Below, piece by piece: positions 11,746 through 55,311 of a stretch of 64,000 nucleotides of DNA (its first letter is position 1; each line of letters begins with the position of its first letter). The notes under the pieces are model-generated. The model saw only the letters and a list, made by a program, of their open reading frames with translations, made no database searches and was not told the DNA's origin. The DNA lies in assembly GCA_958295765.1 (NCBI GenBank), contig CATQHB010000002.1, forward strand, positions 398,424 to 462,423, in the 5' to 3' direction. The position numbers and the translations under genes are program-made. Source of the DNA: an uncultured Dehalococcoidia bacterium (GTDB taxonomy: Bacteria > Chloroflexota > Dehalococcoidia > Lucifugimonadales > UBA3495).

Positions 11746-11760
11746 AGACTGCACCGGCCT

Positions 11761-13188: not shown

Positions 13189-13207
13189 CCCTGTCCCTCC
13201 TTCCGAT

Positions 13208-16959: not shown

Positions 16960-17176
16960 CTTAAAATCATTGACAGATGAATAAATTATTGGTAATTGAT
17001 AGGTGTATTATCACCTGAACCCCACTTATGGTAAACTTGACGCCGTTCAAGGTGAGCGGGATGAGAACGGTTCAGGGATTCCCGGACGTATCAACCGGAT
17101 TATTCGGGCCGGCGCTGCGGAAGGCGGCCAGGCAAGGGCAAACAATCAAAAGTGGAAAAGTGAAGGAGGGCAACCG

Positions 17177-17512
17177 ATGAATGTGGAAAGTCGGCGGGAG
17201 GGCGAGAACCTGGTCTTGATTACCGATGGTCGCGTTGACGGCACCAACGCCACCGATTTTCAGGACGCGATGAAACAGGCGATTCAGGCCAGCGACACGG
17301 CGGTAGTCCTGGACTTTGAGAACCTGACCTATATCAGCAGCGCGGGCCTCCGGGTCGTCTTGCTGGTCGCCAAGGACCTTCAGCGTCAGGGAGCGAAGTT
17401 TGCCGCCTGTTCGCTCTCCTCGACCGTTAAAGAGGTTTTCGTGATTAGCGGTTTTGACAAAATCATCCCGGTTCACGATACTCAAGAGGCGGCGATCGGC
17501 TCTTTCGGCTAG
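17177..17512 (+). CDS. STAS-domain anti-sigma-factor antagonist (RsbV/SpoIIAA-like)
   Basis: LDFENLTYISSAGLRVVLL carries the conserved Ser. RBS GAAGGAGGG precedes ATG 17177. The track ORF starts earlier, at 17003. Confidence 0.85.
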   Translation: MNVESRREGENLVLITDGRVDGTNATDFQDAMKQAIQASDTAVVLDFENLTYISSAGLRVVLLVAKDLQRQGAKFAACSLSSTVKEVFVISGFDKIIPVHDTQEAAIGSFG

Positions 17513-17665
17513 ACCGGATTCGCCCGAGGGACTACCTAAACCCGTTACCGGAACGGCCGGATTGACCCCGATCCCGGCCCCGGTATCGGCGTATCTGCCG
17601 TATATACTCGGAACAGTTTCAAGAGAATTACCGATAGCCACGATAGCCAATAATCTTGGCAAGGG

Positions 17666-18838
17666 ATGGAACCGATGGCACAGCCGTTCAAGATTCTGGT
17701 GGTGGACGACGAGCCGGACCTGGAGCCGCTGATGCTCCAGCGGATGCGCCGCCATATCCGCGCCGGCGAGTATGACTTTGTCTTTGCCCATAATGGCATT
17801 GAGGCGCTGGAGCGGCTGCAACAGGAAGATGACATCGACATGGTCATCTCCGACATCAATATGCCGCAGATGGACGGCCTGACCCTGCTGGAGCAGATTC
17901 CCAAGGTGGACCCCAATATCCGCTCCGTCATTATTTCGGCCTACGGCGATATGAAGAACATTCGCACGGCGATGAATCGGGGGGCCTTCGACTTCGTCAC
18001 CAAGCCCCTGGACTTCGACGACCTGCGGATTACGATTGAGCGGACGGTCAGCCACCTGGTCGAATGGCGGGACGCCCTCTCCTCCCGGGACAAGCTGGTG
18101 GTGTTGCAGAATGAGCTGGACGTTGCCAGCAAGATGCAGCAGTCCATACTGCCTACCCTGTTCCCGGCGGGTCCCGACTACCGCTACTTTGCCAGTATGG
18201 AGCCGGCCCGGAACGTGGGCGGCGATTTCTACGACACGCTGCGGCTGGACGAAGGGCGGATTGGCCTGGCGATTGCCGATGTGTCTGGCAAGGGCGTGCC
18301 GGCGGCCCTGTTTATGATGTCCAGCCGCACCCAGCTGAAGGGGGCGGCTATCGGCAACCACTACCCGGGGGCCGTGCTGCGGGAGGTCAACCAATTGCTG
18401 TGCCAGGACAACGACACGATGATGTTCGTTACCCTGGTGTACGTGGTCTATGACCCGGCCAGCGGGGAGATTACCTTTGCCAACGGCGGCCATAACCAGC
18501 CGCTGATTCGCCATACCGACGGAAGTTCCACCCTGCTCCCCTTGACCGGCGGGATTGCCCTGGGGGTGGCTCCCGACATTGATTACGACCAGGAAACCGT
18601 TACCCTCGCCCCCGGCGAGGCCCTGGTGCTCTACACCGACGGCGTTACCGAGGCGATGAACTCGGCGGATGAGGAGTTCGGCCTGGAGCGCTTGTGCGAA
18701 GTCCTGACGGCCACTTCCTCTGATGACCCTCGGGAAGTGAACCAGGCCATTTTCGACGGGGTCAGGGCCTTTGCCGGCGGCACGCCTCAATCCGACGACA
18801 TTACCTGCCTGACCCTTTGCCGCAGTCGAGGCTCCTGA
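17666..18838 (+). CDS. Response-regulator receiver fused to a PP2C/SpoIIE phosphatase (RsbY/RsbU-like)
   Basis: REC domain: ILVVDDEPD...DMVISDINMPQMDG...KP. PP2C domain: VGGDFYD, IADVSGKGVPAALFM, YTDGVTEA. Confidence 0.88.
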   Translation: MEPMAQPFKILVVDDEPDLEPLMLQRMRRHIRAGEYDFVFAHNGIEALERLQQEDDIDMVISDINMPQMDGLTLLEQIPKVDPNIRSVIISAYGDMKNIRTAMNRGAFDFVTKPLDFDDLRITIERTVSHLVEWRDALSSRDKLVVLQNELDVASKMQQSILPTLFPAGPDYRYFASMEPARNVGGDFYDTLRLDEGRIGLAIADVSGKGVPAALFMMSSRTQLKGAAIGNHYPGAVLREVNQLLCQDNDTMMFVTLVYVVYDPASGEITFANGGHNQPLIRHTDGSSTLLPLTGGIALGVAPDIDYDQETVTLAPGEALVLYTDGVTEAMNSADEEFGLERLCEVLTATSSDDPREVNQAIFDGVRAFAGGTPQSDDITCLTLCRSRGS

Positions 18839-27808: not shown

Positions 27809-28060
27809 TCAGTCAGTCTTGCGAAACCTGCACACGCTTGCTACAGACTGCTCTGCCCATCTCACCCTAACCTCCCCCGACACCAGCCCCGGCAAAACTG
27901 CATCCCGCAAAGTGGCGAGAGTGCGGGATTCCGCTATGACCAACCGAACCGGTTCATCTAATAATAGGCCGAAGGTTCCAAAGGAATCAACTACTTCTGC
28001 TGGCGTTTCTACCGCTGCCAGTGCCTCAAATGTCCCTGTATGTTCGTGCTGCCGGATTTT
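27809..28060 (-). pseudogene. hsdS: Type I restriction-modification specificity subunit (HsdS) C-terminal remnant
   Basis: The tail of an otherwise antisense ORF reads ...ESRTLATLRDAVLPGLVSGEVRV, the conserved HsdS C-terminal helix motif. No N-terminal TRD, hsdM or hsdR is present. Confidence 0.5.
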
Positions 28061-28210
28061 CTGTTGCAACTCCTCAACTGCGTAGTAGGTGAATGAACTT
28101 GAATTACCCGCCCCCCGCCCCCATCCTTGACAAGCAGCATACGCTTCTTTAGCATCACTGATAAAGTGATAAAGTGCTGAAGTGCTAAAGCCGGAGCGGG
28201 AGGTGTGCTT

Positions 28211-29461
28211 ATGAAAGCCCTGGTCGGAGCCAATCTTATAGACGGAACCGGTGGCCCGGTGGTCAACGATGCTACGGTCTTGATTGACGGCGAGCGCATT
28301 GTGGAAACCGGCCGGCGCGAGGCGGTCGTCCTGCCGCCCAACACCGAAGTAGTTGACCTGGCCGGCCTGACCCTGATGCCCGGCATGATTGACTGCCACG
28401 ACCATCTGGCCTCCAAGGATTACGGGCTGCCCAGCCGGATGGGTTACCACGAACCCCTGTCCCTCCAGCACCTGCGCACCGCCCGGGTCCTGGAGCAGAC
28501 CCTGGCCGCCGGTTATACCTGCGTCCGGGACGCCGGGGGGCTGGATGCCGGTTTCAAGCAGGCGGTGGAGCAGGGGCTGTACCCCGGCCCCCGGCTGGTG
28601 CTGTCGGTAGCCATTATTTCCCCCACCGGCGGGCTGGCCGACAAGGTAACGCCCTCCGGCCAGTGCTATCCCCACGATGACCCGATGATACCCTCCGGGG
28701 TGGCCGACGGGGATGATCCGGTGCGGGCCAAGGTTCGGGAGATGGCCCGGGTGGGCGCCGACGTCATCAAGTTCGCTACCACCGGCGGGGCCAGTTCCCG
28801 CCCCGGACACGGCCCGCTGGACATTGCCTTTGGCCCTTCGGAAGTGCGCGCCCTGATTGCGGAGGCGCAAGCCCTGGGGCGCCGGACGATGTGCCACGCC
28901 GTCGGCGGGCCGGGCCTGCGAATGTGCGTCGAGGCCGGCGCCCACTCCATAGAACACGGCTGCTACTTGGCCGAAGACCCGGACCTGCTCAAGATGATGG
29001 CCGACAACGGCATTTTCCTGGTGCCTACTTTTGAGATTTACGAATTTCACGCCACCCTCAGCGCGCCCCATATGCAGGCCCGCTCCCGCGCCCTGATGGA
29101 CATTCACCGGGAGACGCTGCACCAGGCCCTGGCCGCCGGGGTCAAGGTCGTGGCCGGCACCGACGCCGGCGGGTACGTTCACGGCGACAACGCCCGGGAA
29201 GTCCAGATTATGGTGGAACGGGGTATGCCCAATATGCAGGCCATCCAGGCTTGCACCGGCTGGGCCGCCGAATGTGTTGGTCTGGGTAAGGACATCGGCA
29301 CGGTGACCAAAGGGAAGTACGCCGACCTGCTGGTCGTGGACGGCGACCCGCTCCGCCACATTGAGGTCTTGCGCCAACCGGAGAGCATCAAGCTGGTAAT
29401 GAAGGGCGGGGTCGCCGCCGTGGACAAGCTGCCGGCCCGCGCCCCGTCCCTGGTAGCGTAA
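28211..29461 (+). CDS. Amidohydrolase-family metal-dependent hydrolase
   Basis: MPGMIDCHDHL, CHAVG, GTDAG, and the N-terminal beta-sandwich ILIDGERIV. GGGAGG RBS lies 7 nt before ATG 28211. Confidence 0.85.
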   Translation: MKALVGANLIDGTGGPVVNDATVLIDGERIVETGRREAVVLPPNTEVVDLAGLTLMPGMIDCHDHLASKDYGLPSRMGYHEPLSLQHLRTARVLEQTLAAGYTCVRDAGGLDAGFKQAVEQGLYPGPRLVLSVAIISPTGGLADKVTPSGQCYPHDDPMIPSGVADGDDPVRAKVREMARVGADVIKFATTGGASSRPGHGPLDIAFGPSEVRALIAEAQALGRRTMCHAVGGPGLRMCVEAGAHSIEHGCYLAEDPDLLKMMADNGIFLVPTFEIYEFHATLSAPHMQARSRALMDIHRETLHQALAAGVKVVAGTDAGGYVHGDNAREVQIMVERGMPNMQAIQACTGWAAECVGLGKDIGTVTKGKYADLLVVDGDPLRHIEVLRQPESIKLVMKGGVAAVDKLPARAPSLVA

Positions 29462-34214: not shown

Positions 34215-34811
34215 ATGAATAGTAGTGAGCGCAGCGTGGATTATCGGAGCATCGCCCCTATAATGGGCCGCCTCTGGTCGCCCTTGGCCGCCGTGACCAG
34301 CCGGTGGCAGGGCCGGGCCAATGCTCAGATTGCCGTCGCCATCAGCGCCGCCTCTATCGTACCCGACCGTCCCCGGGTGCTGGTCCAGATATACAAGGAA
34401 AACTACAGCCACGACCTCATCCACCGGAGCCGGGCCTTTGCCCTCAACTTTCTGCGGAAAGACCAGCTTCAGCTAATCAGGGATTTCGGCTTTGTTTCCG
34501 GCGGCGACCGGGATAAGCTGGACGGGGTGGAATATACGGAGAAGGTAACCGGCAGCCCGGTGCTTAAAGACTGCCTGGGCTACCTGGATTGCCGGGTGGT
34601 CAACGGGATGGACGGCGGCGATATGACCTGTTTCCTCGCCGAGGTTCTGGACGGCTACGTCAACCCGGACCAGGAACCGCTGACCTGGCGGGAGGCCCGG
34701 CGGCTCATTCCGCCGGAATGGAACGAGGAATGGTCGGTCAAAATCGGCGCCAACATCGCCGTCTCCCGGGAACAAATGGGAGACATTGATTATACCCCCT
34801 GGATACCATAG
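34215..34811 (+). CDS. Flavin reductase-like (FMN-binding split-barrel) protein
   Basis: Pattern MGRLWSPLAAVTS...FALNFL...GSPVLKDCLGYLDCRVV. Start uncertain (34152, 34215 or 34263). Confidence 0.65.
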   Translation: MNSSERSVDYRSIAPIMGRLWSPLAAVTSRWQGRANAQIAVAISAASIVPDRPRVLVQIYKENYSHDLIHRSRAFALNFLRKDQLQLIRDFGFVSGGDRDKLDGVEYTEKVTGSPVLKDCLGYLDCRVVNGMDGGDMTCFLAEVLDGYVNPDQEPLTWREARRLIPPEWNEEWSVKIGANIAVSREQMGDIDYTPWIP

Positions 34812-34856
34812 CAAGACCAGGGATAGCCTAATGAGAAAGGCCGCAGGGTATTGGAA

Positions 34857-36062
34857 ATGAGCGAGATTGAGGATGTCATCGTAAAAATCCACGCTACGCC
34901 GCACAAGTCGGTGCTGGTGGCGGCCGGCGCCGGCAGCAGCGCTATGTCCTGGCTGCTGGGGGTCTCCGGCGCCTCCCGCACCCTGTTGGAGACCCTGGTT
35001 CCCTACGGGCGGTTTTCTATGATTGACCTGGTGGGGCAGGAACCGGCCCAATACGTATCGCCGGAAAACGCCCGGGATATGGCCCGCGCCGCCTACCGCC
35101 GGGGCCTGGCGCTGCGGGAGGATGACTCCCCGGTAGTCGGCCTGGCCTGCACCGCCACCATCGCCACCGACCGGCCCAAGCGCGGCGACCACCGGGCCTG
35201 CATTGCCGCCTGGGACGACACCCGCGTTACCGCCTATAACCTGACCCTGGATAAGGGCCACCGGGACCGGGTAGGTGAGGAGGAGGTAGTCAGCCGGTTG
35301 GTAATTCACGCCATGGCCCAAGCCTTTGGCGTCGCGGCAGACCTGAACCTGGGCCTGACCGAGGTGGAGCGGCCGGAGATAATAACCCGGCATCACCCCG
35401 GCCCGGTGCAGCGTCTCCTGTCCGGCGAGGTCAACACCGTCCTGGCCCACCCCGACGGGCGGTTGACCGTCAGGGATGAGCCTTTGGCCCCGAACTTGGC
35501 GCAGGACGGGGATGATGGTGATAGTGGCGGGTTTGCCGTCCTGCCCGGCTCTTTCAGCCCGTTGCATTACGGCCATGAGGAACTGGCCCGCATCGCCGGG
35601 GAAATGCTGGGCCGGGAGGTGGTGTACGAACTGTCGGTGCTGAACGTGGACAAGCCGCCCCTGGAAGAATCGGAGATAATGCGGCGGGTGGGCCAGTTCT
35701 CCGGCAAAGATGCCGGCAGGGATGTCGGTAAGGGCAAGGTGGCCCTGACCCGCGCCCCAACCTTCCGCACAAAGGCCGACCGGTTCCCCGGCTCCGTTTT
35801 CGTCATCGGTTGGGACACCCTGACTCGCTTGATTGACCCCAAGTATTACGGGGGAGAGGAAGCGGCAATGCTGACCGCCCTGGCCGAGATTTGGGCCTTG
35901 GGCTGCCGTTTCCTGGTCGCCGGCCGGGCCAGCGGCGGCGTATTCCACACCCTGGACGAAGTGGCGATACCGCAGGGTTTCCGGCTCCTGTTCCAGGCCA
36001 TCCCCGAAAATAGTTTCCGGGCCGACATATCATCTACCGAGTTGCGGGAACGGGGTGGGTAG
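34857..36062 (+). CDS. Fusion of a CinA C-terminal/PncC-like domain and an HxGH nucleotidyltransferase (NadD/NMNAT-like)
   Basis: N-terminal LVAAGAGSSAMSWLLGVSGASRTLLETLVPY...ACTATIATDRPKRG. C-terminal LPGSFSPLHYGHEELA. Confidence 0.55.
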   Translation: MSEIEDVIVKIHATPHKSVLVAAGAGSSAMSWLLGVSGASRTLLETLVPYGRFSMIDLVGQEPAQYVSPENARDMARAAYRRGLALREDDSPVVGLACTATIATDRPKRGDHRACIAAWDDTRVTAYNLTLDKGHRDRVGEEEVVSRLVIHAMAQAFGVAADLNLGLTEVERPEIITRHHPGPVQRLLSGEVNTVLAHPDGRLTVRDEPLAPNLAQDGDDGDSGGFAVLPGSFSPLHYGHEELARIAGEMLGREVVYELSVLNVDKPPLEESEIMRRVGQFSGKDAGRDVGKGKVALTRAPTFRTKADRFPGSVFVIGWDTLTRLIDPKYYGGEEAAMLTALAEIWALGCRFLVAGRASGGVFHTLDEVAIPQGFRLLFQAIPENSFRADISSTELRERGG

Positions 36063-43954: not shown

Positions 43955-45775
43955 CTAAGGGGTATCGTAAAGTTCGATTGGCGCCCCCGGAGTCAAGTCC
44001 AGCCCTTGCAGACCCGGGTAGTCCGGCGCATACCGATAAGCGCGGTACACCTGATTAGCCGGTACTACTCTACCACTTCTCAGTTCTTCCGTCGGCACCG
44101 GCTCGCCTTGACGCACCGGGCCGTCGTTGGTCGTCGGGTTGACGTACTGCCAAACCGTTTTGCCGGCCGGCGTTACCTCAAAAAGTGTGCCGTTCACCCC
44201 GTCGCAAATCAGCGTGTTGCCGTTGGGCAGCCGTTGCGCCCCGGAGATGTAAGGGGCGTAAAAGTCGCCGGGCGTCGGGGCGGTATAAGTCCATACCGGT
44301 TCTCCCGGCGCATAAGCCAGGCCGGAGTCCAGCCGGTAATTGGCCCCGTCCACCGGCGGAACAATCTCATCTACCGACGAGTAAGTGCGGGGGAGAGCCG
44401 TTGACTCGTCGCCATTGTTGAAAATGAGGATGTTTCCGGCGCCGGGCTGGCCGGGGGGAATCCATTGCGGATTATGCTGCGAGAAAAGTTGCTGGTCAGC
44501 AATCGTCCCGGCCCGATAGGCGAGGGGGTTGCCCCAGCGGTACAGCAAGTCGCCCCCCTGGCCGCTATTGCCGCCGCCGGAGCCGGCCGCCTCGGCTCTG
44601 GTGGTACTGTGGTCGATAATCCACACTTCGCCGAAATTACTAGGCGACAGCACGATCTGGTCCAATTCCGGGCTATAGTCGATTCCGTTGCTGTGTATCC
44701 AGTCCGACGGGTCTGAATAATTGGTTGTCTCGGCAAGGCGGAAGTTAAGGTCAATCAGCTCCGGATGCTCGGCCACCACGCCGTAATTGGCCTTGCCGGG
44801 GTCAAAGTCCTGAATCAGATGATCCCACGCCGACCATTCCCAAACGATTTCGCAGCTTGCCGTCCCGGTAATTCGGGCTTCCACGATATGCGGCGCCAGC
44901 AAGCCATTACCGTCAGGGTCGATGAATTCCGGGTTGGCGCCGGCGGCGATGGCCTCCTCCGGCGTTTTACGTTGCCGGGACAGTAGCAGCACGTTCCCGT
45001 TGGGCATTTTAAGGAAGTCATGATGCGGATTCCCCTGAGTACAGTTCCAAAGGATGTTCCCGTTCCAGTCAATTTCCTGCACATAGCGGCCCTGCTCGGT
45101 ATTGACTAAAGTCAGCAGATTGCCATTCTCCAGCAACTTTGCTAACGCGGCATTGCCCGCCAACTCCCACCGGTGCACCTCCCGCCCCTGATTATCAATC
45201 AGGTAAAACGTCTTGGTGCGGCGTTTATTAAATAAAGTATAGCCCTCAAATGCCTCCGGCTCATTCAGGAACAACCCGACGGTCCTGGTGTCCGGCGTCG
45301 GGGTAACGGTGGGCGCAGGGGTTGGCGTGGTGGTGGGTGTAGGGGCCGGCGTAGCGGTAGGTGTAGGAACCGGCGTAGCGGTAGGTGTAGGAACCGGCGT
45401 AGCGGCAAGTGTAGGAACCGGCGTAGGGGTAGGTGCAGGAACCGGCGTAGGGGTAGGTGCAGGAACCGGCGTAGCGGTAGGTGTAGGTATAAGGGCCGGC
45501 GTAGCGGCAGGTATAGGGGCCGGCGTAGCGGTAGGTACAGGAGTTGGCGTAACAACCGGCGCCGCCGTTGGGCGGGGCGTTGACCTATCGACCGGTTCCG
45601 CGTTGCTGCAAGCCAGTAGTGAAACTACTGCTACGCCAAGCAGGACCGCAACGGCGACAATCCGGCGCAATTTACTGGTTGCGCCGCGTCGGAAAAATCG
45701 GAAAGGGGAGTAAGAAACATCCTTGTGTGCAGCCGTTTCAGCAAATCCATTGCGCCGCGTCAACCTTATCCGCAA
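43955..45775 (-). CDS. Arylsulfotransferase (ASST)-like beta-propeller lipoprotein, paralog 1
   Basis: Signal and lipobox VVSLLAC|S, Pro/Thr linker, then [95 protein letters not shown]. Start codon uncertain. Confidence 0.6.
   Translation of the reverse strand: MRIRLTRRNGFAETAAHKDVSYSPFRFFRRGATSKLRRIVAVAVLLGVAVVSLLACSNAEPVDRSTPRPTAAPVVTPTPVPTATPAPIPAATPALIPTPTATPVPAPTPTPVPAPTPTPVPTLAATPVPTPTATPVPTPTATPAPTPTTTPTPAPTVTPTPDTRTVGLFLNEPEAFEGYTLFNKRRTKTFYLIDNQGREVHRWELAGNAALAKLLENGNLLTLVNTEQGRYVQEIDWNGNILWNCTQGNPHHDFLKMPNGNVLLLSRQRKTPEEAIAAGANPEFIDPDGNGLLAPHIVEARITGTASCEIVWEWSAWDHLIQDFDPGKANYGVVAEHPELIDLNFRLAETTNYSDPSDWIHSNGIDYSPELDQIVLSPSNFGEVWIIDHSTTRAEAAGSGGGNSGQGGDLLYRWGNPLAYRAGTIADQQLFSQHNPQWIPPGQPGAGNILIFNNGDESTALPRTYSSVDEIVPPVDGANYRLDSGLAYAPGEPVWTYTAPTPGDFYAPYISGAQRLPNGNTLICDGVNGTLFEVTPAGKTVWQYVNPTTNDGPVRQGEPVPTEELRSGRVVPANQVYRAYRYAPDYPGLQGLDLTPGAPIELYDTP
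45280..45586 (-). repeat. Pro/Thr/Ala-rich linker built from ~24-bp imperfect tandem repeats (paralog 1)
   Basis: Iterated GGCGTAGCGGTAGGTGTAGGAACC-type units on the plus strand, giving [17 protein letters not shown]... Confidence 0.65.
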
Positions 45776-45862
45776 AGCTCAAACAGCCTCCTCACACCCG
45801 GTATTGGAGCAGGAATTATGGTAATAGTCAGCAACGAACTCGTCAAGGCGGTATTGCCCGGC
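45776..45862 (-). promoter_or_regulatory. Conserved 5' module of ASST paralog 1 (putative promoter plus RBS)
   Basis: Minus strand reads TTGACG (45846-45841), 17 nt, TACCAT (45823-45818), ... GAGGAGG (45793-45787). It is near-identical upstream of all five paralogs. Confidence 0.35.
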
Positions 45863-47623
45863 CTAGGGGGTATCGTAAAGTTCGATTGGCGCCCCCGGAG
45901 TCAAATCCAGCCCTTGCAGACCCGGGTAGTCCGGTGCATACCGGTAGGCGCGGTACACCTGATTAGCCGGTTGTTGCCTACCACTTCTCTGTTCTTCCGT
46001 CGGCACCGCCTCGCCTTGACGCAAAGGGCCGCTGGTGGTCATCGGGTTAACGTACTTCCAAACCGTTTTGCCGGCCGGCGTTACCTCGAAAAGTGTACCG
46101 TGGGGCCCGTCGCAAATCAGCGTGTTTCCGTTGGGCAGCCGTTGCGCCCCGGAGATATAAGGGGCGTAAAAGTCTTCGGGCGTTGGGGCGGTATAAGTCC
46201 ATACCGGTTCGGCCGGCGCATAAGCCTGGCCGGAGTCCAGCCGATAGTTGGCCCCGTCCACCGGCGGAACAATCTCATCTACCGACGAGTAAGTGCGGGG
46301 GACATCCCAAACCCCAATGCCATTGTTGAAAATGAGGATGTTGCCGGCGCCGGGCTGGCCGGGGGGAATCCATTGCGGATTATGCGACGAGAAAAGTTGC
46401 TGGTCATCAAGCGTCCCGGCCCGATAGACGCGGGGGTTGCCCCAGCGGTACAGCAGGTCGCCCCCCATGCCGCTGTTTCCGCCGCCGGAGCCGGCCGCCT
46501 CGGCCCTGGTGGTGCTGTGGTCGATAATCCACACTTCGCTGAAATTACTAGGCGACAGCACAATCTGGTCCAATTCCGGGTTATAGTCGATTCCATTGCT
46601 GTGTATCCAGTCCGTCCAGTCCGGAGGGTCTGTCCCGCCGCCGGCGTTGGGAAGGTGGAAGTTAAGGTCAATCAACTCCGGATGCTCGGCCACCACCCCG
46701 TAATTGGCCTTGCTCGAATCAAAGTCCTGAATCAGATGATCCCACGCCGACCATTCCCAAACAATTTCGCAGCTTGTCGGCCCGGTGATTCGGGCTTCCA
46801 CAATGTGCGGCGCCAACACGCCCTTCTCGCCGATGTATTCCGGGTTGGCGCCGGCGGCGATGGCCTCCTCCCGCGGTTTACGTTGCCGGGACAGCAGCAG
46901 CACGTTCCCGTTGGGCATTTTAAGGAAGTCATGATGCGGATTCCCCTGAGTACAGTCCCACAGGATATTCCCATTCCGGTCAACTTCCCGCACATAGCGG
47001 CCCTGCTCGGTATTGGCGAAAGTCAGCAGATTGCCATTCTCCAGCAACCTGGCGAACTGGGCCGCAGCCGCCAACTCCCACCGGTGCACCTCCCGCCCCT
47101 GATTATCAATCAGGTAAACCGTTTTGGTGCGGCGTTTATTAAATAAAGTATAGCCGACAAATGCCTCCGGCTCATTCAGGAACACCCCGACGGTCCTGGC
47201 GGCCGGCGTCGGCGTAGCGGTGGGTTCAGGAGTTGGCGTCGGGGTAGGTGCCGGCGTCGGCGTAGTGGTAGGTATAGGGGCCGGCATAGCGGCAGGTGCC
47301 GGGCTGGGAGCCGTGGTAGCAACGGCAACGGTTGGGCGCAAGGTCGGCGCCGGCGTAGCGGTAGGCGTAGGGGCCGGCGTAGCAGTAGGCGCGGGGGTAA
47401 CAACCGGCGCCGCCGTTGGGCGTGGCGTTGACCTATCGACCGGTTCCGCGTTGCTGCAAGCTGGTAGTGAAACTACTACTGCGCCAAGCAAGACCGCAAC
47501 GGCGACAATCCGGCGCAATTTACTGGTTGCGCCGCGTCGGAAAAATCGGAAAGGGGAGTGAGAAACATCCTGGTGTGCCGCCGTTTCAGCAAATCCATTG
47601 CGCCGTGTCAACCTTATCCCCAA
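45863..47623 (-). CDS. ASST-like beta-propeller lipoprotein, paralog 2
   Basis: Same architecture and motifs as paralog 1. Confidence 0.6.
   Translation of the reverse strand: MGIRLTRRNGFAETAAHQDVSHSPFRFFRRGATSKLRRIVAVAVLLGAVVVSLPACSNAEPVDRSTPRPTAAPVVTPAPTATPAPTPTATPAPTLRPTVAVATTAPSPAPAAMPAPIPTTTPTPAPTPTPTPEPTATPTPAARTVGVFLNEPEAFVGYTLFNKRRTKTVYLIDNQGREVHRWELAAAAQFARLLENGNLLTFANTEQGRYVREVDRNGNILWDCTQGNPHHDFLKMPNGNVLLLSRQRKPREEAIAAGANPEYIGEKGVLAPHIVEARITGPTSCEIVWEWSAWDHLIQDFDSSKANYGVVAEHPELIDLNFHLPNAGGGTDPPDWTDWIHSNGIDYNPELDQIVLSPSNFSEVWIIDHSTTRAEAAGSGGGNSGMGGDLLYRWGNPRVYRAGTLDDQQLFSSHNPQWIPPGQPGAGNILIFNNGIGVWDVPRTYSSVDEIVPPVDGANYRLDSGQAYAPAEPVWTYTAPTPEDFYAPYISGAQRLPNGNTLICDGPHGTLFEVTPAGKTVWKYVNPMTTSGPLRQGEAVPTEEQRSGRQQPANQVYRAYRYAPDYPGLQGLDLTPGAPIELYDTP
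47188..47434 (-). repeat. Pro/Thr/Ala-rich linker repeats (paralog 2)
   Basis: [16 protein letters not shown]... Length differs from the other copies. Confidence 0.6.
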
Positions 47624-47710
47624 AGCTCAAACAGCCTCCTCGCACCCGAGATTGGAGCGGGAATTATGGTAATAGTCAGCAGTGAAGTCGTCAAGGCGGT
47701 ATTGCCCTGG
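47624..47710 (-). promoter_or_regulatory. Conserved 5' module of ASST paralog 2
   Basis: Same CGTCAAGG...TTATGGTAATAGTCAGCA...CCTCCTC blocks (plus-strand reading). Confidence 0.35.
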
Positions 47711-49483
47711 CTAGGGGGTATCGTAAAGTTCGATGGGCGCCCCCGGAGTCAAGTCCAGCCCTTGCAGACCCGGGTAGTCCGGCGCATATCGATAGGCGCG
47801 GTACAACTGATTAGCCGGCCATTCTCCATCATCTCCCTGTTGTTCCAGCGGGACGCCTTGACGCAAGATGCCGTCGCTGGTCGCCGGGTTGGCGTATTTC
47901 CAAACCGTTTTGCCGGCTGGCGTTACCTCGAAAATCGTGCCCCGCGTCCCATAGCAAATCAGGGTGTTTCCGTTGGGCAGCCGTTGCGCCCCGGAGATAA
48001 AACGGGTGTAAAAGTCGCTGGGCGTGGCGGCGGTATAAGTCCATACCGGTTCGGCCGGCGCATAAGCCTGGCCGGGATCCAGCCGGTAGTTGGCCCCGTC
48101 CACCGGCGGGGCAAGCTCATCTACCGACGAGTAATTGCGCCGGAAATCCGGGAACTCCCGGCCGTTGTTGAAAATGAGGATGTTGCCGGCTCCGGCCAGT
48201 CCGGGGGGAATCCAGTGCGGATTATGGGGCCAGAATAGTTGCTGATCATCGGGCGTACCGGCGCGATAAGCGCGGGGGTTGCCCCAGCGGTACAGCAGGT
48301 CGCCCCCCCTGCCGCTATTGCCGCCGCCGGAGCCGGCCGCCTCGGCCCTGGTGGTGCTGTGGTCGATAATCCATATTTCGCTGAAATGACGGGGCGACAG
48401 CATAATCTGGTCCAATGCCGGGTTATAGTCAATTCCGTTGCTGTGGATCCAATCCGCCGAGTTATCCCGGGCGACTGCCTCGGAAAGGCGGAAGTTGAGG
48501 TCAATCAACTCCGGGCGCTCGGCCACCACGCCGTAATTGGCCTTGCTCGAATCAAAGTCCTGAATCAGATGATCCCACGCCGACCATTCCCAAACAATCT
48601 CGCAGGTTGCCGGCCCGGTGGTTCGGATTTCCACAATATGCGGCGCCAGCAAGCCGTCGGGGGTGATGAATTCCGGGTTGGCGCCGGCGGCGATGGCCTC
48701 CTCCGGCGTTTTAATTTGCCGGGACAGGATCAGCGCGTTCCCGTTGGGCATTTTAAGGAAGTCATGATGCGGAATCCCCGGAGTACAGTCCCAAAGGGCG
48801 TCCCCGTTCCGGTCAATTTCCCGCACACTGCCCTCCGGCACAGTTTGATCCGTCTCGAGGCCCGGCTCTCTGGCGAAAGTCAGCAGATTGCCATTCTCCA
48901 GCAACTTGGCGAACAGGGCCACATATTCCAACTCCCACCGGTGCACCTCCCGCCCCTGATTATCAATCAGGTAAATCGTATTGGTGCGGAATTTATTAAA
49001 TAAAGTATAGCCCTCAAATGCCTCCGGCTCATTCAGGAGCAGCCCGACGGTCCTGGCGGCCGGCGTCGGGGTAGCGGTAGGCTCAGGGGGCGGCGTGGCG
49101 GTAGGCGCAGGAACCGGCGTAGCGGTAGGTACAGGGGCCGGCGTAGCGGTAGGAGTAGGGGCCGGCGTAGGGGTAGGCTCAGGAACCGGCGTGGCGGTAG
49201 GTGTAGGAACCGGCGTAGCGGTAGGTACAGGAACCGGCGTAGCGGTAGCCGCCGGCGTAACAACCGCCGCCGCCGTTGGACGGGGTGTTGACCTTTCGAC
49301 CGGTTCCGCGTTGCTGCAAGCCAGTAGTGAAACTACCGCCAGGCCAAGCAGGACCGCAACCGCGACAATCCGGCGCAACTTGCTGCTTGCGCCGCGTCGG
49401 AAAAGTCGGAAAGGAGGGTGAGAAACATCCTTGAGTGCCGCCGTTTCAGCAAATCCATTGCGCCGTGTCAACCTTATCCTCAA
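47711..49483 (-). CDS. ASST-like beta-propeller lipoprotein, paralog 3
   Basis: Same architecture, with divergent loops (e.g. FAREPGLETDQTVPEGSVREIDRNGD). Confidence 0.6.
   Translation of the reverse strand: MRIRLTRRNGFAETAALKDVSHPPFRLFRRGASSKLRRIVAVAVLLGLAVVSLLACSNAEPVERSTPRPTAAAVVTPAATATPVPVPTATPVPTPTATPVPEPTPTPAPTPTATPAPVPTATPVPAPTATPPPEPTATPTPAARTVGLLLNEPEAFEGYTLFNKFRTNTIYLIDNQGREVHRWELEYVALFAKLLENGNLLTFAREPGLETDQTVPEGSVREIDRNGDALWDCTPGIPHHDFLKMPNGNALILSRQIKTPEEAIAAGANPEFITPDGLLAPHIVEIRTTGPATCEIVWEWSAWDHLIQDFDSSKANYGVVAERPELIDLNFRLSEAVARDNSADWIHSNGIDYNPALDQIMLSPRHFSEIWIIDHSTTRAEAAGSGGGNSGRGGDLLYRWGNPRAYRAGTPDDQQLFWPHNPHWIPPGLAGAGNILIFNNGREFPDFRRNYSSVDELAPPVDGANYRLDPGQAYAPAEPVWTYTAATPSDFYTRFISGAQRLPNGNTLICYGTRGTIFEVTPAGKTVWKYANPATSDGILRQGVPLEQQGDDGEWPANQLYRAYRYAPDYPGLQGLDLTPGAPIELYDTP
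49033..49294 (-). repeat. Pro/Thr/Ala-rich linker repeats (paralog 3)
   Basis: [37 protein letters not shown]... Confidence 0.6.
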
Positions 49484-49570
49484 AGCCCGGACAACCTCCC
49501 CGCACCCGAGATTGGAACGGGAATTATGGTAATAGTCAGCAACGAACTCGTCAAGGCAGTATTGCCCAGG
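49484..49570 (-). promoter_or_regulatory. Conserved 5' module of ASST paralog 3
   Basis: Same conserved blocks. RBS variant GGGGAGG. Confidence 0.35.
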
Positions 49571-51283
49571 CTAAGGGCTGTCGTAAAGTTCGATTGGCGC
49601 CCCCGGAGTCAAGTCCAGCCCTTGCAGACCCGGGTAGTCCGGCGCATACCGGTAAGCGCGGTACATCTGATTAACCGGTATTTCTATTTCTACACCACCT
49701 ACCCAGTCCAATTTTTGCAACGGCACCGGCTCGCCTTGACGCAAAGGGCCGTCGCTGGACGTCGGGTTGACGTACTGCCAAACCGTTTTGCCGGCCGGCG
49801 TTACCTCAAAAAGCGTACCGTTTACCCCGTCGCAAATCAGCGTGTTGCCGTTGGGCAGCCGTTGCGCCCCGGAGATGTAAGGGGCGTAAAAGTCGCCGGG
49901 CGTGGCGGCGGTATAAGTCCATACCGGTTCGGCCGGCCCATAAGCCTGGTCGGGGTCCAGCCGATAGTTGGCCCCGTCCACCGGCGGAACCAGCTCATCT
50001 ACCGACGAATAACCGCGCCGGAAATCCGGGAACTCGTCGCCATTGTTGAAAATGAGGATGTTGCCGGCGCCGGGCCGGCCGGGGGGAATCCATTCAGGAT
50101 TATGGGGCCAGAATAGTTGCTGGTCGTCGGCCGTCCCGGCCCGATAGGCGCGGGGGTTGCCCCAGCGGTACAGCAGGTCGCCCCCCTTGCCGCTATTTCC
50201 CCCGCTGGAGCCGGCCGCCTCGGCCCGGGTGGTGCTGTGGTCGATAATCCACACTTCGCTGAAATGACGGGGCAACAGCATAATCTGGTCCAGTTCCGGG
50301 TTATAGTCGATTCCGTTGCTGTGGATCCAGTCCATCGGGTCTAACCAGTCGGCTACCTCGGCCAGGCGGAAGTTAAGGTCAATCAACTCCGGGTGTTCGG
50401 CCACCACGCCGTAATTGGCCTTGCCGGGGTCAAAATCCTGAATCAGATGATCCCACGCCGACCATTCCCAAACGATTTCGCAGCTTGCCGGCCCGGTGAT
50501 TCGGGCCTCTACAATATGCGGCGCGAACAAGCTATCGGCGGCGATGAAGTCCGGGTTGGCGCCGGCGGCGATGACCGCCGCGGCGGGTTTATGTTGCAAG
50601 GACAGCAGCAGCACGTTCCCGTTGGGCATTTTAAGGAAGTCATGATGCGGGACGCCCTGCATACAGTCCCAAAGGATGTTCCCGTTCCGGTCAACTTCCC
50701 GCACACTGCGCTCCGGTTCCCGGTCCAGGTCTCTGGCGAAAGCCAGCAGATTGCCGTTCTCCAGCAACCTGGCGAACAGGGTCCGGCGCTCCAACTCCCA
50801 CCGGTGCACCTCCCGCCCCTGATTATCAATCAGGTAAAGCGTCGGGGTGCCCCGTTTATTAAATAAAGTATAGCCGTCAAACGCCTCCGGCTCATTCAGG
50901 AGCACCCCGACGGTCCTGGCGGCCGGCGTCGGGGCAGCGGTGGGCGCCGGGGTTGGCGTAAGGGTAGGCTCAGGGATCGGCGTAGCGGTGGGTGTCGGGG
51001 CCGGTGTAGGGGTAGGTGTCGGAACCGGCGTAGGGGTAGGCTCAGGAACCGGCGTAGGGGTGGGCGCCGGGGTGGGCGCCGGGGTAACAACCGGCGCCGT
51101 TGTTGGACGGGGTGTTACCCTCTCGACCGGCTCTGTGTCGCTGCAAGCCAGCAGGGAAACTACTGCTACGCCAAGCAGGACCGCAACCGCGACAATCCGG
51201 CGCAATTTACTGGTTGCGCCGCGTCGGAAAAGTCGGGGGAGCGGGGGACATACTTGAGCCGGTAGCCGTTTCAGCAAATCCAT
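49571..51283 (-). CDS. ASST-like beta-propeller lipoprotein, paralog 4 (the only copy with the conserved ATG in frame)
   Basis: Starts [11 protein letters not shown]...[14 protein letters not shown].., lipobox LLAC|S. Same propeller motifs. Confidence 0.6.
50902..51118 (-). repeat. Pro/Thr/Ala-rich linker repeats (paralog 4)
   Basis: [34 protein letters not shown]... Confidence 0.6.
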
Positions 51284-51395
51284 TGCGCCGCGTCAACCTT
51301 ATCCGCCAGGCTCGGCCAACCTCCTCGTACCCGAGATTGGGGCGGGATTTATGGTAATAGTCAGCAACAAAGTCGTCAAGGCGGGATTGCCCGGC
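51284..51395 (-). promoter_or_regulatory. Conserved 5' module of ASST paralog 4
   Basis: Same conserved blocks. Confidence 0.35.
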
Positions 51396-53207
51396 CTAGG
51401 GGGTATCGTAAAGTTCGATGGGCGCCCCCGGAGTCAAATCCAGCCCTTGCAGACCCGGGTAGTCCGGCGCATACCGGTAAGCGCGGTACACCTGATTAAC
51501 CGGTATTTCTATTTCTCCAGCAGTTGCCCACACCAATCTTTCCATCGGCACCGGCTCGCCTTGACGCAAAGGGCCGTCGCTGGACGCCGGGTTGACGTAT
51601 TTCCAAACCGTTTTGCCGGCCGGCGTTACCTCAAAAATCGTGCCGTTCACCCCGTCGCAAATCAGCGTGTTGCCGTTGGGCAGCCGTTGCGCCCCGGAGA
51701 TGTAAGGGGCGTAAAAGTCGCTGGGCGTTGCGGCGGTATAAGTCCATACCGGTTCGGCCGGCCCATAAGCCTGGCCGGAGTCCAGCCGGTAGTTGGCCCC
51801 GTCCACCGGCGGAACAATCTCATCGATCGACGAATAACCGCGCAGGAAATCTGTGAACTCAAGGCCATTGTTGAAAATGACGATGTTGCCGGCCCCGGCC
51901 TGGCCGGGGGGAATCCATTCAGGATTATGCTGCCAGAATAGTTGCTGGTCGTCAGGCGTCCCGGCGCGATAGGCGCGGGGGTTGCCCCAGCGGTAGAGCA
52001 GGTCGCCCCCCATGCCGCTATTGCCGCCTTCGGAGCCGGCCGCCTCGGTCGTGGTGGTACTATGGTCGATAATCCACACTTCGCTGAAACGACGGGTGGA
52101 CAGCACAATCTGGTCCAATTCCGGGTTATAGTCGATTCCGTTGCTGTTTATCCAATCCGCCGGGTGCCCCCGGGCGGCTAACTCGTCAAGGAGGTAGTTA
52201 AGGTCAATCAACTCCGGATGCTCGGCCACCACGCCGTAATTGGGCTTGCTCGAATCAAAGTCCTGAATTATATGATCCCACGCCGACCAATCCCAAACGA
52301 TTTCGCAACTGGCCGGCCCGGTGGGTCGGGCCTCAACGATACGCGGCCCCATCAAGCCACTACCGTCAGGGTCGATGAAGTCCGGGTTGGCGCCGGCGGC
52401 GATGACCTCCTCGGGGGTTTTAAATTCCCGGCCCAGCAGCAGCATATTCCCGTTGGGCATTTTAAGGAAGTCATGATGCGGCAGGCCATGAGCACATTCT
52501 GCGAGGATGTTCCCGTTCCGGTCAATTTCCCGCACACTGCGCCGCGGGGTGTGGTCCGGGTATATGCCGAGAGTCATCAGATTGCCATTCTCCAGCAACT
52601 GTGCGAACAGGGCCTCATAGTCCAACTCCCACCGGTGCACCTCCCGCCCCTGATTATCAATCAGGTAAAACGTATTGGTGTGGCGTTTACTAAATAAAGT
52701 ATAGCCCTCAAATGCCTCCGGCTCATTCACGAACAACCCGACGGTCCTGGCGACCGGCGTCGGGGTAGCGGTAGGCTCAGGGGCCGGCGTAGCGGTGGGC
52801 GCAGGGGGTGGTGTCGCGGTAGGTGCAGGAACCGGCGTAGCGGTAGGTGCAGGAACCGGCGTAGCAGTAGGTACAGGAACCGGCGCAGCGGTAGGTACAG
52901 GAACCGGCGCAGCGGTAGGTATGGGGGCCGGCGTAGCGGTAGGTGCAGGAACCGGCGTGGCGGTAGGTACAGGAGTTGGCGTAACAACCGGCGCCGCCGT
53001 TGGGCGGGGTGTTGACCTATCGACCGGCTCTGTGTTGCTGCAAGCTGGTAGGGAAACTGCTGCTACGCCAAGCAGGAGCGCAACGGCGACAATCCGGCGC
53101 AATTTACTGGTTGCGCCGTGTCGGAAAAATCGGAAAGGGGAGTAAGCAACATCCTGGTGTGCCGCCGTTTCAGCAAATCCATTGCGCCGCGTCAACCTTA
53201 TCCTCAA
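51396..53207 (-). CDS. ASST-like beta-propeller lipoprotein, paralog 5
   Basis: Same architecture, with lipobox-like SLPAC|S. Confidence 0.6.
   Translation of the reverse strand: MRIRLTRRNGFAETAAHQDVAYSPFRFFRHGATSKLRRIVAVALLLGVAAVSLPACSNTEPVDRSTPRPTAAPVVTPTPVPTATPVPAPTATPAPIPTAAPVPVPTAAPVPVPTATPVPAPTATPVPAPTATPPPAPTATPAPEPTATPTPVARTVGLFVNEPEAFEGYTLFSKRHTNTFYLIDNQGREVHRWELDYEALFAQLLENGNLMTLGIYPDHTPRRSVREIDRNGNILAECAHGLPHHDFLKMPNGNMLLLGREFKTPEEVIAAGANPDFIDPDGSGLMGPRIVEARPTGPASCEIVWDWSAWDHIIQDFDSSKPNYGVVAEHPELIDLNYLLDELAARGHPADWINSNGIDYNPELDQIVLSTRRFSEVWIIDHSTTTTEAAGSEGGNSGMGGDLLYRWGNPRAYRAGTPDDQQLFWQHNPEWIPPGQAGAGNIVIFNNGLEFTDFLRGYSSIDEIVPPVDGANYRLDSGQAYGPAEPVWTYTAATPSDFYAPYISGAQRLPNGNTLICDGVNGTIFEVTPAGKTVWKYVNPASSDGPLRQGEPVPMERLVWATAGEIEIPVNQVYRAYRYAPDYPGLQGLDLTPGAPIELYDTP
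52727..53018 (-). repeat. Pro/Thr/Ala-rich linker repeats (paralog 5)
   Basis: PTATPVPAPTATPAPIPTAAPVPVPTAAPVPVPTATP... Confidence 0.6.
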
Positions 53208-53296
53208 AGCTCAAACAGCCTCCTCACACCCGGTATTGAAACGGGAATTATGGTAATGGTCAGCAGTGAATTCGTCAAGGCGGTATTCCTCCAGGG
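53208..53296 (-). promoter_or_regulatory. Conserved 5' module of ASST paralog 5
   Basis: Same conserved blocks. Confidence 0.35.
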
Positions 53297-53419
53297 CAAC
53301 CGTCGTTCCGGCAGGGCAACCGTCGTTCCGGCGAAAGCCGGAATCCAGAACCCTCGGTAGCCGGCCCGCTCTTTTCCCGTAGGATTTCCTGGATTCCGGC
53401 TTTCGCCGGAACGACGGTG
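53297..53419. repeat. Family B element (B6) with a duplicated left terminus, core in B4 orientation
   Basis: CAACCGTCGTTCCGGC occurs twice, followed by the full element. Confidence 0.65.
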
Positions 53420-53555
53420 GGCGGGAACGACGGTGGGCGGGAACGACGGTGGGCGGGAACGACGGTGGGCGGGAATGACCGGGGTGTGCGGGAACGACGG
53501 TGGGCGGGAATGACCGGGGTGTGCGGGAATGACCGGGGTGTGCGGGAATGACCGG
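53408..53555. repeat. Tandem array of 16-bp (GGAACGACGGTGGGCG) and 19-bp (GGAATGACCGGGGTGTGCG) units
   Basis: Five 16-bp and three-plus 19-bp units, contiguous with no spacers. The units resemble the termini of families B (..GGAACGACGG) and C (..GGAATGAC). Confidence 0.75.
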
Positions 53556-53595
53556 TTTATGCTGGGATTGCCCGGCGGGGATAGATAAACGGTAG

Positions 53596-53624
53596 TTGGC
53601 TAACCGGCGGGTATGTGTTAAAAT
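53596..53624 (+). promoter_or_regulatory. Sigma70-like promoter for the DsbA-like gene
   Basis: TTGGCT (53596-53601), 17 nt, TAAAAT (53619-53624), about 30 nt upstream of ATG 53655. Confidence 0.5.
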
Positions 53625-53654
53625 CGGTGCAATTAAACAGGAGGAGGCATCGCT

Positions 53655-54287
53655 ATGGCTGAAGCGGATTTCCGAACCTATTACGACTTCCGTTGACCCT
53701 TCGTATATAACGCTGCCATGTGGCTGGCGAAGGTACGAGCAACCACCGGACAAGAGGTCAACGTGGACTGGCAGCCCTTCTCCCTGGAGCAGGTGAACAG
53801 CGACAAGGGAGAGGATTTCAAGTATTGGGAGCAGCCGGGCGCCACTGACGGCACCGACAATACCCTCCTGGCCCACCGGGCCGGGCTGGCCGCCAAGCGG
53901 CAGGGCAAGGATGCCTTTGAGTCCTTCTTTATGGCCCTGTTGAAACTGCGCCACGAAGAGCGGAAGAGCCTGACCGACCCGGCGGTGATGGAAGAGGCGG
54001 TCGCCAATTCCGGCATCGACATGGCCCGGTTCCGGGAAGACCTGGCCGACCCCGACCTGCTGCGGGAGATTGGCGAGAGCCATACCGTCGCGGTGGAGGA
54101 GTACGGGGCCTTTGGCGTGCCTACTTACATCTTCCCCAACGGCAGCACCGCCTTTGTGAAGATGCACATTCCTCCCGATGAAGAGGCCGGGGAGATTTAC
54201 GAGTCCCTGACCCGGGTGATTACCGAGGCCCGGCACGTGGGCGAGGTCAAGCGCCCGTCGCCCCCCTGGCCCCACGGCCTCATCTAG
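53655..54287 (+). CDS. DsbA/FrnE-like thioredoxin-fold oxidoreductase with in-frame TGA (53694-53696) at the redox-Cys position; candidate selenoprotein, otherwise a pseudogene
   Basis: AGGAGGAGG RBS (53639-53647) then ATG 53655. The frame reads MAEADFRTYYDFR-TGA-PFVYNAAMWLAKV... and continues into track ORF 53718..54287, which carries DsbA features (VDWQPFSL, FGVPTYIF). Confidence 0.6.
53698..53733 (+). promoter_or_regulatory. SECIS-like stem-loop immediately 3' of the in-frame TGA
   Basis: Lower stem CCUUCG/CGAAGG (6 bp), 7-nt 5' internal loop, upper stem C-(G bulge)-C-U.U-GCC/GGC, apical loop AUGU with G and U 24-25 nt after the UGA. Confidence 0.45.
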
Positions 54288-54309
54288 GGAGACCTTCCAG
54301 GGTTTTGCC

Positions 54310-55311
54310 TTGGCACTTGAAGAACTGGAATCGGTCTTAGGATTGCGTTTCAAGGACCGGGGCCTGCTGCAACAGGCCCTGGTTCATCGCTCTTTTCTCA
54401 ACGAACAGGGCGGCTCCAGTCTGGACTCCTACGAGCGTATGGAGTTTCTGGGGGATGCCGTGCTGGAGTTGGTGATTTCCACCGAGCTTTACCAGGCTCT
54501 GCCCCGGGTAACCGAGGGGGAGTTGACCAAGGGCCGGTCGGCTCTGGTCTGCCGCCCCAGCCTGGCCCGGGTGGCCCGCCGCCTGTCCCTGGGCGAGTAC
54601 CTGTCCCTGGGCAAGGGAGAAAAGGGTTCCGGCGGCCAGGAGCGGGAGTCCATCCTGGAAGAGGTCTTTGAGTCGGTGGTGGCGGCGATTTACCTGGATC
54701 AGGGGTATGAGGCGGCCCGCCGGTTTATCCTCAGCGCGCTGGCGCCGGAGTTAGCCGACTACTGCCGCCGGGGGGCCGCGCCGGAAAACCCCAAGTCCCA
54801 GTTGCAGGAAATGGTACAGGGCTGGGGAGGCGCCACGCCCCGCTACCAGGTGGTAGCTATTGCCGGCCCCGACCACCAGCCGGTATTTACCGTGGCGGTT
54901 ACGGCCGGGGATGCCGTCCTGGGACAGGGCGCCGGAACCAAAAAGGCGGACGCCGAGCGCGCCGCGGCCCGGGCAGCCCTGGCGCATTATGCGACGGCCC
55001 CGCCGCCGGCTCAGGAGTCCGGGGAATGGCCCCAACAATCCGTTCAAGAATCCGTTCAAGAATCCGGCGGCCCCGGCCCGGCGGACGTTGAACTGGTGGA
55101 AACCGGCAACCGCAGCCGCAGCCGAAAATCTAAGGACACGCACCGCGTCGAATTATGCTCTCATTCTTCCAACGCAACCGCGAAGCCAATCAGGAACGCA
55201 CCACGGAAGGCGTCAAGCGCAGCCGGGAACGCTGGTTCGGGCGGATCCTCGGTGTTCTCCGCTCCTCTAGCCTGGATGAAGGGGTTTGGGAGGAACTGGA
55301 GGAAATCCTGA
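54310..55311 (+). CDS. rnc: Ribonuclease III with a ~90-aa C-terminal extension overlapping ftsY
   Basis: Signature ERMEFLGDAVLE and dsRBD PKSQLQE...GTKKADAERAAARAAL. The ORF runs 157 nt into ftsY. TTG start. Confidence 0.8.
   Translation: MALEELESVLGLRFKDRGLLQQALVHRSFLNEQGGSSLDSYERMEFLGDAVLELVISTELYQALPRVTEGELTKGRSALVCRPSLARVARRLSLGEYLSLGKGEKGSGGQERESILEEVFESVVAAIYLDQGYEAARRFILSALAPELADYCRRGAAPENPKSQLQEMVQGWGGATPRYQVVAIAGPDHQPVFTVAVTAGDAVLGQGAGTKKADAERAAARAALAHYATAPPPAQESGEWPQQSVQESVQESGGPGPADVELVETGNRSRSRKSKDTHRVELCSHSSNATAKPIRNAPRKASSAAGNAGSGGSSVFSAPLAWMKGFGRNWRKS

Follow-up and report, generated by a model that had tools for sequence, protein, structure and literature searches.

A conserved in-frame UGA in a DsbA-like gene of Dehalococcoidia: a predicted selenoprotein encoded beside rnc

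Does a TGA triplet 13 codons into a reading frame end a short leader, or does it specify the catalytic residue of an enzyme? The question is raised by a stretch of 64,000 nucleotides from an uncultured Dehalococcoidia bacterium (contig CATQHB010000002.1), referred to here as the window, in which the open reading frame (ORF) usually called at 53718-54287 (189 residues) is preceded in the same frame by an ATG and a TGA. A first-pass annotation, made from the letters alone, had proposed that this TGA is a selenocysteine (Sec) codon at the redox position of a DsbA-like oxidoreductase, followed by a hairpin resembling a selenocysteine insertion sequence (SECIS). According to the comparisons described below, 53655-54287 in all likelihood encodes one 210-residue cytoplasmic protein of the DsbA fold in which UGA codon 14 is decoded as Sec. 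The gene is very probably genuine, and its product a small redox enzyme with selenocysteine as the catalytic residue. Sec insertion itself, binding of the elongation factor SelB to the hairpin, and the chemistry of the enzyme are inferred.

A reading frame that continues through the UGA

The elements of the gene, all on the plus strand, are the following.

53596..53624, +: promoter-like site TTGGCT-17-TAAAAT whose -10 hexamer is preceded by TG (a consensus match only)
53639..53647, +: Shine-Dalgarno motif AGGAGGAGG, 7 nt before ATG 53655
53655..54287, +: full coding sequence of the predicted DsbA-like selenoprotein, 210 residues plus stop codon (54285-87), with Sec as residue 14
53691..53693, +: Arg codon CGU directly 5′ of the UGA, invariant at the nucleotide level
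53694..53696, +: in-frame UGA, the putative Sec codon, in the motif D-F-R-U-P-F-V; TGA is conserved, Cys stands in homologues

The start codon is ATG 53655-57, and the frame reads MAEADFRTYYDFR-TGA-PFVYNAAMWL and remains open through the TGA to the stop at 54285-87. In this respect, the first-pass annotation had read the sequence correctly: the in-frame ATG, AGGAGGAGG at a distance of 7 nt and the TTGGCT-17-TAAAAT site are all present, and the latter was also picked by a promoter scan (2 sites vs 0.4 expected). When Cys was put at the TGA, the read-through product matched the Pfam family DSBA (PF01323) over residues 9-166 (E = 9e-18) and, more weakly, an Rv2466c-like family (E = 4e-9); no model of NCBIfam matched it. 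Because the DSBA match spans residues 9-166 of the read-through product, the ORF usually called, 53718-54287, is without strand β1 and the active-site turn. The lack of an N-terminal β1 in that ORF had been suspected before, and the Pfam span and an AlphaFold model of a Cys-containing homologue agree on it.

Conservation of the TGA was followed in one genome per species (GTDB), which gave 80 loci, all from metagenome-assembled genomes (MAGs) of Dehalococcoidia/SAR202/Chloroflexota, several of them named after sponge samples. Protein identity to the window protein across these loci is 60-94%. The TGA was found at exactly the same codon in all 80 species representatives and in one additional locus, L081 (81/81). 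A metagenome scan, for which Cys-type sequences served as seeds, returned 31 loci, with TGA in 30 and TGC in one; overall, 111 of the 116 other loci fetched have TGA at this codon. This conservation is far beyond chance. In each of the 81 loci, a start codon and a GGAGG-type motif lie ∼13 codons upstream of the TGA. The starts are mostly ATG, a few being GTG or beginning one or two codons earlier, and a GGAGG-type motif stands at a comparable distance from the start in nearly all related loci. Neither a frameshift nor any other disruption was found in the 81 loci carrying TGA. The comparison of orthologous loci, which the first-pass annotation had named as a check, therefore came out in favor of its reading (81/81 and 30/31).

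Variation in the 13 codons 5′ of the TGA is chiefly synonymous. The D, F, Y and R residues are fixed, and codons alternate freely at invariant residues (Asp GAC/GAT 59:42, Phe TTC/TTT 40:61), which suggests that this segment is under protein-level selection. The fact that the upstream codons appear to evolve as protein excludes a pseudogene and makes a separate 13-residue leader peptide implausible. Inactivation by a nonsense mutation, for which the in-frame stop 13 codons into the frame would speak, has next to no probability for further reasons: the identical “mutation” would have to be present in 111 loci at 60-94% identity, purifying selection acts on both sides of the TGA, and there is no other lesion. 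This explanation is effectively refuted. A reassigned genetic code, with TGA standing for Trp or Gly, was also considered and ruled out, because TGA is the ordinary stop of 16 of the 42 long ORFs in the window.

How the gene is represented in databases was inspected in the best 120 protein clusters. Short calls of 189-197 residues, starting 3-8 codons past the TGA position, make up 107 of them; 12 extend over the full length and have Cys in the UGA column (FYDFRCPFVYN); and one (P0032, with 147 member sequences) shows Trp. The DNA underlying P0032 has TGA at this position (locus L081, 352-354). Therefore, the pipeline used a code with TGA = Trp on those contigs, and the Trp is an annotation artefact. 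The numerous short calls correspond exactly to a model in which the UGA is a true stop behind a 13-residue leader, the functional 189-residue protein starts at ATG 53718, and the hairpin serves translational coupling or regulation; the presence of ATG or GTG at the position of 53718 in almost all members also fits this model. It is nevertheless considered very unlikely. The shortened protein would have neither the β1 strand nor the active-site turn that belong to the DSBA fold, and the “leader” can be aligned residue for residue with the homologous N-terminus of the full-length Cys proteins and is in the same frame in all 111 related loci carrying TGA. Inspection of the sequence upstream of ATG 53718 found no Shine-Dalgarno motif there, and the called start shifts from one short cluster to another (MYN, VYN, MWL, VWL). 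The short starts in the 107 clusters thus appear to be artefacts of gene calling, and a frame that runs from ATG 53655 through the UGA remains the preferred reading.

Cysteine codons (TGC/TGT) occupy the UGA column in loci L082 and L113-L116, and Cys is the only amino acid with sense codons at this column among the homologues. The expected alignment of the TGA with Cys was, thus, observed both in these loci and in the full-length clusters. One of the Cys-form loci, L113, has the gene order of the window (DinG-like helicase, OGG, ADH, PolyA_pol, the gene itself, rnc, ftsY, DUF2298, PMT_2) and is therefore a positional orthologue. Cys forms have at least two origins inside the Sec forms in a neighbour-joining tree.

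The RNA downstream of the UGA and its decoding

Three segments of the plus strand make up the structure proposed for the RNA.

53700..53706, +: 5′ arm of the lower stem, weakly conserved
53711..53729, +: SECIS-like minihelix, with stem 53711-17 paired to 53722-24 and 53726-29, bulged U at 53725, and loop AUGU at 53718-21
53733..53739, +: 3′ arm of the lower stem, pairing with 53700..53706

A two-tier stem-loop does follow the TGA, as the first-pass annotation had described, and two of its details had to be corrected: it is the 3′ side that bears the bulged U (53725), where the 5′ side had been named, and the lower stem extends to 53739 instead of 53733. The 23-nt minihelix has a folding energy of −9.2 kcal/mol (z = −2.4), which 3 of 200 shuffled sequences equalled in stability, and the same hairpin has a mean of −9.3 kcal/mol over 53 distinct Sec forms. 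The stability of a 71-nt piece around the hairpin is unexceptional (z = −0.71). The bacterial SECIS (bSECIS) model prescribes a loop of 3-9 nt, an upper stem of 4-16 bp, a distance of 16-37 nt from UGA to loop, and a minimum free energy of at most −7.5 kcal/mol (PMC13188914). With its 4-nt loop, its 7-bp stem with one bulge, a spacing of 21 nt and the energy given above, the hairpin of the window lies within all of these limits. Thus, the claim of bacterial SECIS geometry holds for stem, loop length, spacing and energy; the loop sequence departs from one rule of the consensus (see below).

Pairing was scored in 66 distinct sequences and compared with controls in which the partners were slid, and with 500 shuffles. 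In the two-tier structure, 84% of the cells are paired, compared with 40-55% in the slid controls, and none of the 500 shuffles matches this value. The upper helix is paired in 90% of the cells. For the lower stem (helix 1), the proportion is 79%, with several pairs broken, and it is therefore probably not essential. At the base of the minihelix, 41 sequences have C-G at 53711/53729 and 20 have U-A, without a single C-A or U-G; the two nucleotides are third codon positions at which the change is synonymous (AAC/AAT for Asn and GCG/GCA for Ala, respectively). Other changes are compatible with pairing: replacement of CUG by UGG or UUG gives G-U, GCU to GCC turns U-G into C-G, and in the GCA class, the A pairs with the U that is bulged in the other sequences.

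Selection on the nucleotides themselves was most evident at two codons. In 105 distinct Sec-form genes, 43 codon columns are conserved and four- or sixfold degenerate, and only 2 of these have zero codon entropy, namely Ala GCC 53715-17 at the top of the stem and Arg CGT before the UGA (105/105 in both cases). At the remaining conserved Arg columns of the gene, CGT is a minor codon with a share of 4-14%. Both frozen codons are altered in Cys forms, the Arg codon being CGC in three of four. Thus, the orthologs keep the hairpin: its changes are compensatory or compatible with pairing, and synonymous sites are frozen, even if the independent covariation events are few.

A further structure was noticed in the RNAalifold output, a 5-bp helix of CGUUG (53691-95) with YAAYG (53708-12). 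The initial U and G of the UGA form part of it, and it is in competition with the foot of the SECIS stem. The CGC of most Cys forms breaks this helix, and both a codon-context requirement and an alternative fold have been considered.

Several observations speak against a SECIS element at this place and against Sec as the residue inserted. In the tree, few independent events underlie the C-G/U-A covariation. The RNAalifold consensus retains only a 3-bp GCC/GGC core and the alternative helix, because two stem registers coexist, that of the GCU/GCC class with its bulged U and that of the GCA class with an A-U pair. Cys forms can still fold a hairpin, shifted and weaker, of −4.5 to −7.0 kcal/mol (n = 3). 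Rfam gave no match, neither at the gathering score in the whole window nor at E ≤ 10 in 53600-53850, and the Infernal scan suggested by the first-pass annotation thus returned nothing in its favor. The bacterial SECIS consensus has a G within the first two nucleotides of the loop (PMC13188914), a rule that is broken by AUGU, with its G in third position. The loop of the family is RUGU, and GUGU, which agrees with the rule, is found in about a quarter of the members; it is also on record that some genuine bSECIS elements fail the bSECIS model (PMC13188914). As for the machinery, a Pfam search of 40 window ORFs and a tRNA search with ARAGORN revealed none of selA, selB, selD and tRNA-Sec within the 64 kb of the window, and none was present in the fetched flanks of related loci either. 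Because ARAGORN found no tRNA of any kind in the window, and one in 703 kb of fetched loci, its result is uninformative on tRNA-Sec. Finally, Sec insertion is a prediction for every member of the family. In favor of Sec, indirect evidence for its use in the lineage comes from the literature: Dehalococcoidia MAGs with 46-49 selenoprotein genes have been described (PMC13326102), and SelA and SelB co-occur in most bins of sponge symbionts (PMC5649159).

The lack of Sec machinery in the window and the departure of AUGU from the SECIS consensus would also be compatible with reading of the UGA by a near-cognate or suppressor tRNA for Trp or Cys, the hairpin acting as a generic stimulator of read-through. 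The one cluster showing Trp would agree with this, yet its DNA has TGA and the Trp stems from the pipeline. Such Sec-independent read-through is judged to be highly improbable. Sense codons at the column are for Cys only, and the column is the position of the catalytic nucleophile, which is the classical Sec/Cys signature. Trp could not act as a nucleophile, and insertion of Cys would be achieved more simply by a one-base change to TGC or TGT, which has occurred at least twice. In addition, the family was independently classed as a selenoprotein (PMC2398784), and related MAGs are reported to be rich in selenoproteins (PMC13326102). Thus, decoding of the UGA as Sec is clearly favored. The ribosome would start at ATG 53655 and meet the UGA in the weak-stop context U-UGA-C, where a SelB-type elongation factor with Sec-tRNA(Sec), held by the stem-loop 53711-53729, would insert Sec instead of allowing termination.

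Fold, relatives and predicted chemistry of the protein

In the AlphaFold model of the Cys homologue P0011 (pLDDT 79.5), β1 comprises residues 6-10, and Cys14 directly precedes a helix of residues 15-29. Residue 14 is, as far as the model goes, at the nucleophile position of thioredoxin-fold enzymes, the N-terminus of helix α1. The N-terminus of the protein runs directly into β1, and neither a CxxC motif nor a signal peptide is present. The motif is U-P-F-V, with Val at the resolving position, and there is no Cys anywhere in the 210 residues. Therefore, an intramolecular selenenyl-sulfide would not be possible, and a monoselenol mechanism with an external thiol is predicted.

The best match among PDB sequences was DR2335 (E = 2e-17), which was also the best hit of Foldseek (TM 0.78), followed by Rv2466c (0.66-0.70) and GST kappa (0.55-0.59); HCCA isomerase is likewise distant. 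DR_2335 of Deinococcus radiodurans is described as DsbA-like, with one conserved Cys and a predicted location in the cytoplasm, and functional data on it are lacking (PMC8945050, PMC6300522). Its structure (PDB 7dk9) and that of a C24S mutant (7dka), which marks the Cys in question, are available. This single Cys, in YFDFLCPYAW, aligns with the UGA codon, and the C-terminal (K/R)RP.P motif is common to both proteins; they differ in that DR_2335 has Cys, not Sec, and identity is only ∼25%. By sequence and model, the window protein resembles single-Cys cytoplasmic proteins of the DR_2335 type, with the UGA/Cys column at the start of helix α1, and would be a distant relative. The assignment of the TGA to the nucleophilic Cys position of the family, already made in the first-pass annotation, is thereby backed by Cys24 of DR2335 and Cys14 of the P0011 model.

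Rv2466c, a mycothiol/mycoredoxin-dependent nitroreductase, and the kappa-class GST/HCCA isomerase have the same DsbA-like fold at ∼20% identity. They employ an external thiol cofactor, the type of chemistry that is proposed here for the window protein, but in place of the U-P-F-V of the window protein, there is CPWC in Rv2466c and a catalytic Ser in GST kappa. The enzyme would most likely be an oxidoreductase or thiol transferase with one selenol. An oxidised or electrophilic substrate would be attacked by the selenol, to give a selenenyl-sulfide or a selenenic acid, which an external thiol, be it a low-molecular-weight thiol, glutaredoxin or thioredoxin, would then resolve.

DsbA-like selenoproteins have been encountered in metagenomic surveys, as the first-pass annotation had stated. 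The 2008 survey of Global Ocean Sampling (GOS) data by Zhang & Gladyshev lists a family “DsbA 3, pfam01323, UxxV” with 72 Cys homologues and 5 Sec sequences, the latter from 3 samples, and a member sequence in its supplement reads ...SIYFDFRUPFVYNVAVWLTQVR... (PMC2398784). The window protein is 54% identical to one member, JCVI_READ_1592875 (“DsbA 3 UXXV”), over 200 residues (E = 1e-81), and PF01323, the U-x-x-V motif and the local sequence FDFRUPFVYN are shared. On these grounds, the window gene is assigned to the predicted GOS family “DsbA 3 (UxxV)”. That family was based on 5 shotgun reads, and the excerpted 2008 text gives no taxonomic assignment, gene context or SECIS analysis (PMC2398784). 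The present loci place the family in Dehalococcoidia/SAR202, always beside rnc, with TGA in each of the 80 genomes found. In a 2026 review, a “DsbA-like protein form 2” is listed with PF01323, the motif DxxUP and the example MDP6049977.1 (PMC13188914). The D-F-R-U-P of the window protein fits this motif and the Pfam domain is the same, the comparison being one of motif and domain only. The DsbA-like selenoproteins with UxxC (form 1 or “DsbA 1”, FrnE-like, COG2761), described in 2005 by Zhang et al (PMC1088965), share with the window protein the DSBA fold and Sec at the N-terminal nucleophile position. In contrast to the window protein, with its Val and no Cys, they have a resolving Cys (U-P-W-C). 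Membership in form 1 was rejected because a resolving Cys three residues after Sec is missing.

Genomic surroundings and significance

The flanking features are the following.

54310..55311, +: rnc (RNase III), by Pfam, 22 nt past the stop codon of the DsbA-like gene
43955-53207, −: five tandem paralogues of ASST (arylsulfotransferase, PF05935), mutually 75-85% identical

In all 75 genome loci with full flanks, rnc is immediately downstream, usually followed by ftsY, and the DsbA-like gene is probably co-transcribed with rnc. No obvious rationale presents itself for placing a redox selenoprotein and RNase III together in an operon-like arrangement.

On the other side, the ASST array, each paralogue of which bears a Pro/Thr/Ala-rich N-terminal linker, separates the DsbA-like gene from the PolyA_pol gene. 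ASST genes are missing from the corresponding position in the 116 related loci without exception, and in the closest relative, OZ244064.1, whose protein is 94% identical, PolyA_pol and the DsbA-like gene are directly adjacent. The array is, to judge from these loci, a lineage-specific insertion, and a functional link between the selenoprotein and the ASST genes was rejected on the same count (0/116). The adjacency to an ASST array had been pointed out correctly for the window; it is incidental. Between the array and the promoter of the DsbA-like gene are tandem repeats (53292-53332 and 53408-53555), with a 16-nt unit, GGAACGACGGTGGGCG, in 6.5 copies and a 19-nt unit in 5 copies, the two combining into a compound unit of 35 nt in 4 copies. 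A further 20-nt unit is present in 2 copies in the same intergenic region. These repeats may be linked to the ASST insertion.

The Cys forms of the TGC clade, L115 (4-1810) and L116 (127-1799), are located beside genes for AhpC/Redoxin, OsmC and glutaredoxin, not beside rnc, and are not syntenic with the window. Their neighbours give a weak hint that the family might have a role in peroxide or thiol stress.

A search of the window for additional selenoprotein genes yielded 20 read-through candidates (in-frame TGA with high GC content at third codon positions (GC3) on both sides), none of which, apart from the present locus, was convincing; the only other one that looked plausible, at 28178 (“KCU”), is just the region upstream of an amidohydrolase gene. 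Some of the longest ORFs of the window, which has 62% GC, are antisense shadows: 53211-54353(−), 27809-29377(−), 34473-35948(−), 9378-10925(+), 11737-13209(+) and 17072-18790(−). Their GC3 is 0.62-0.68, and they lack Pfam matches, whereas the real genes opposite have a GC3 of ∼0.8 and Pfam matches (amidohydrolase, flavin reductase, NHL-repeat protein, DUF1800, SpoIIE-type phosphatase). A 380-residue minus-strand ORF spans the entire selenoprotein gene.

The knowledge of selenoprotein decoding is left unchanged by this finding. What it affects is annotation: all genomes examined have the gene as a shortened “DsbA family” or hypothetical protein without its catalytic residue, and because NCBIfam has no model for the DsbA-like family, this error will persist. 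The false Trp of P0032 could, in addition, mislead homology-based screens for Sec/Cys pairs. A curated model that specifies where Sec lies and includes the hairpin would put the annotation right across an abundant marine and sponge-associated lineage. A more far-reaching proposal, which is regarded as unlikely, is that the protein represents a monoselenol enzyme, nearly universal in SAR202/Dehalococcoidia and linked to rnc, whose activity has gone unrecognised and whose recoding signal is atypical (RUGU loop, fixed CGU and a possible competing CGUUG/YAAYG helix). If this were true, the atypical signal would point to a two-state SECIS or to an extra context requirement of SelB in this lineage. 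With a single selenol, no other Cys, a gene linked to rnc, and a nearest solved structure without known function, the protein is a clean candidate for the biochemistry of monoselenol DsbA-fold enzymes. It is equally a candidate for asking why Sec is so strongly retained in this family, in which only two reversions to Cys were seen.

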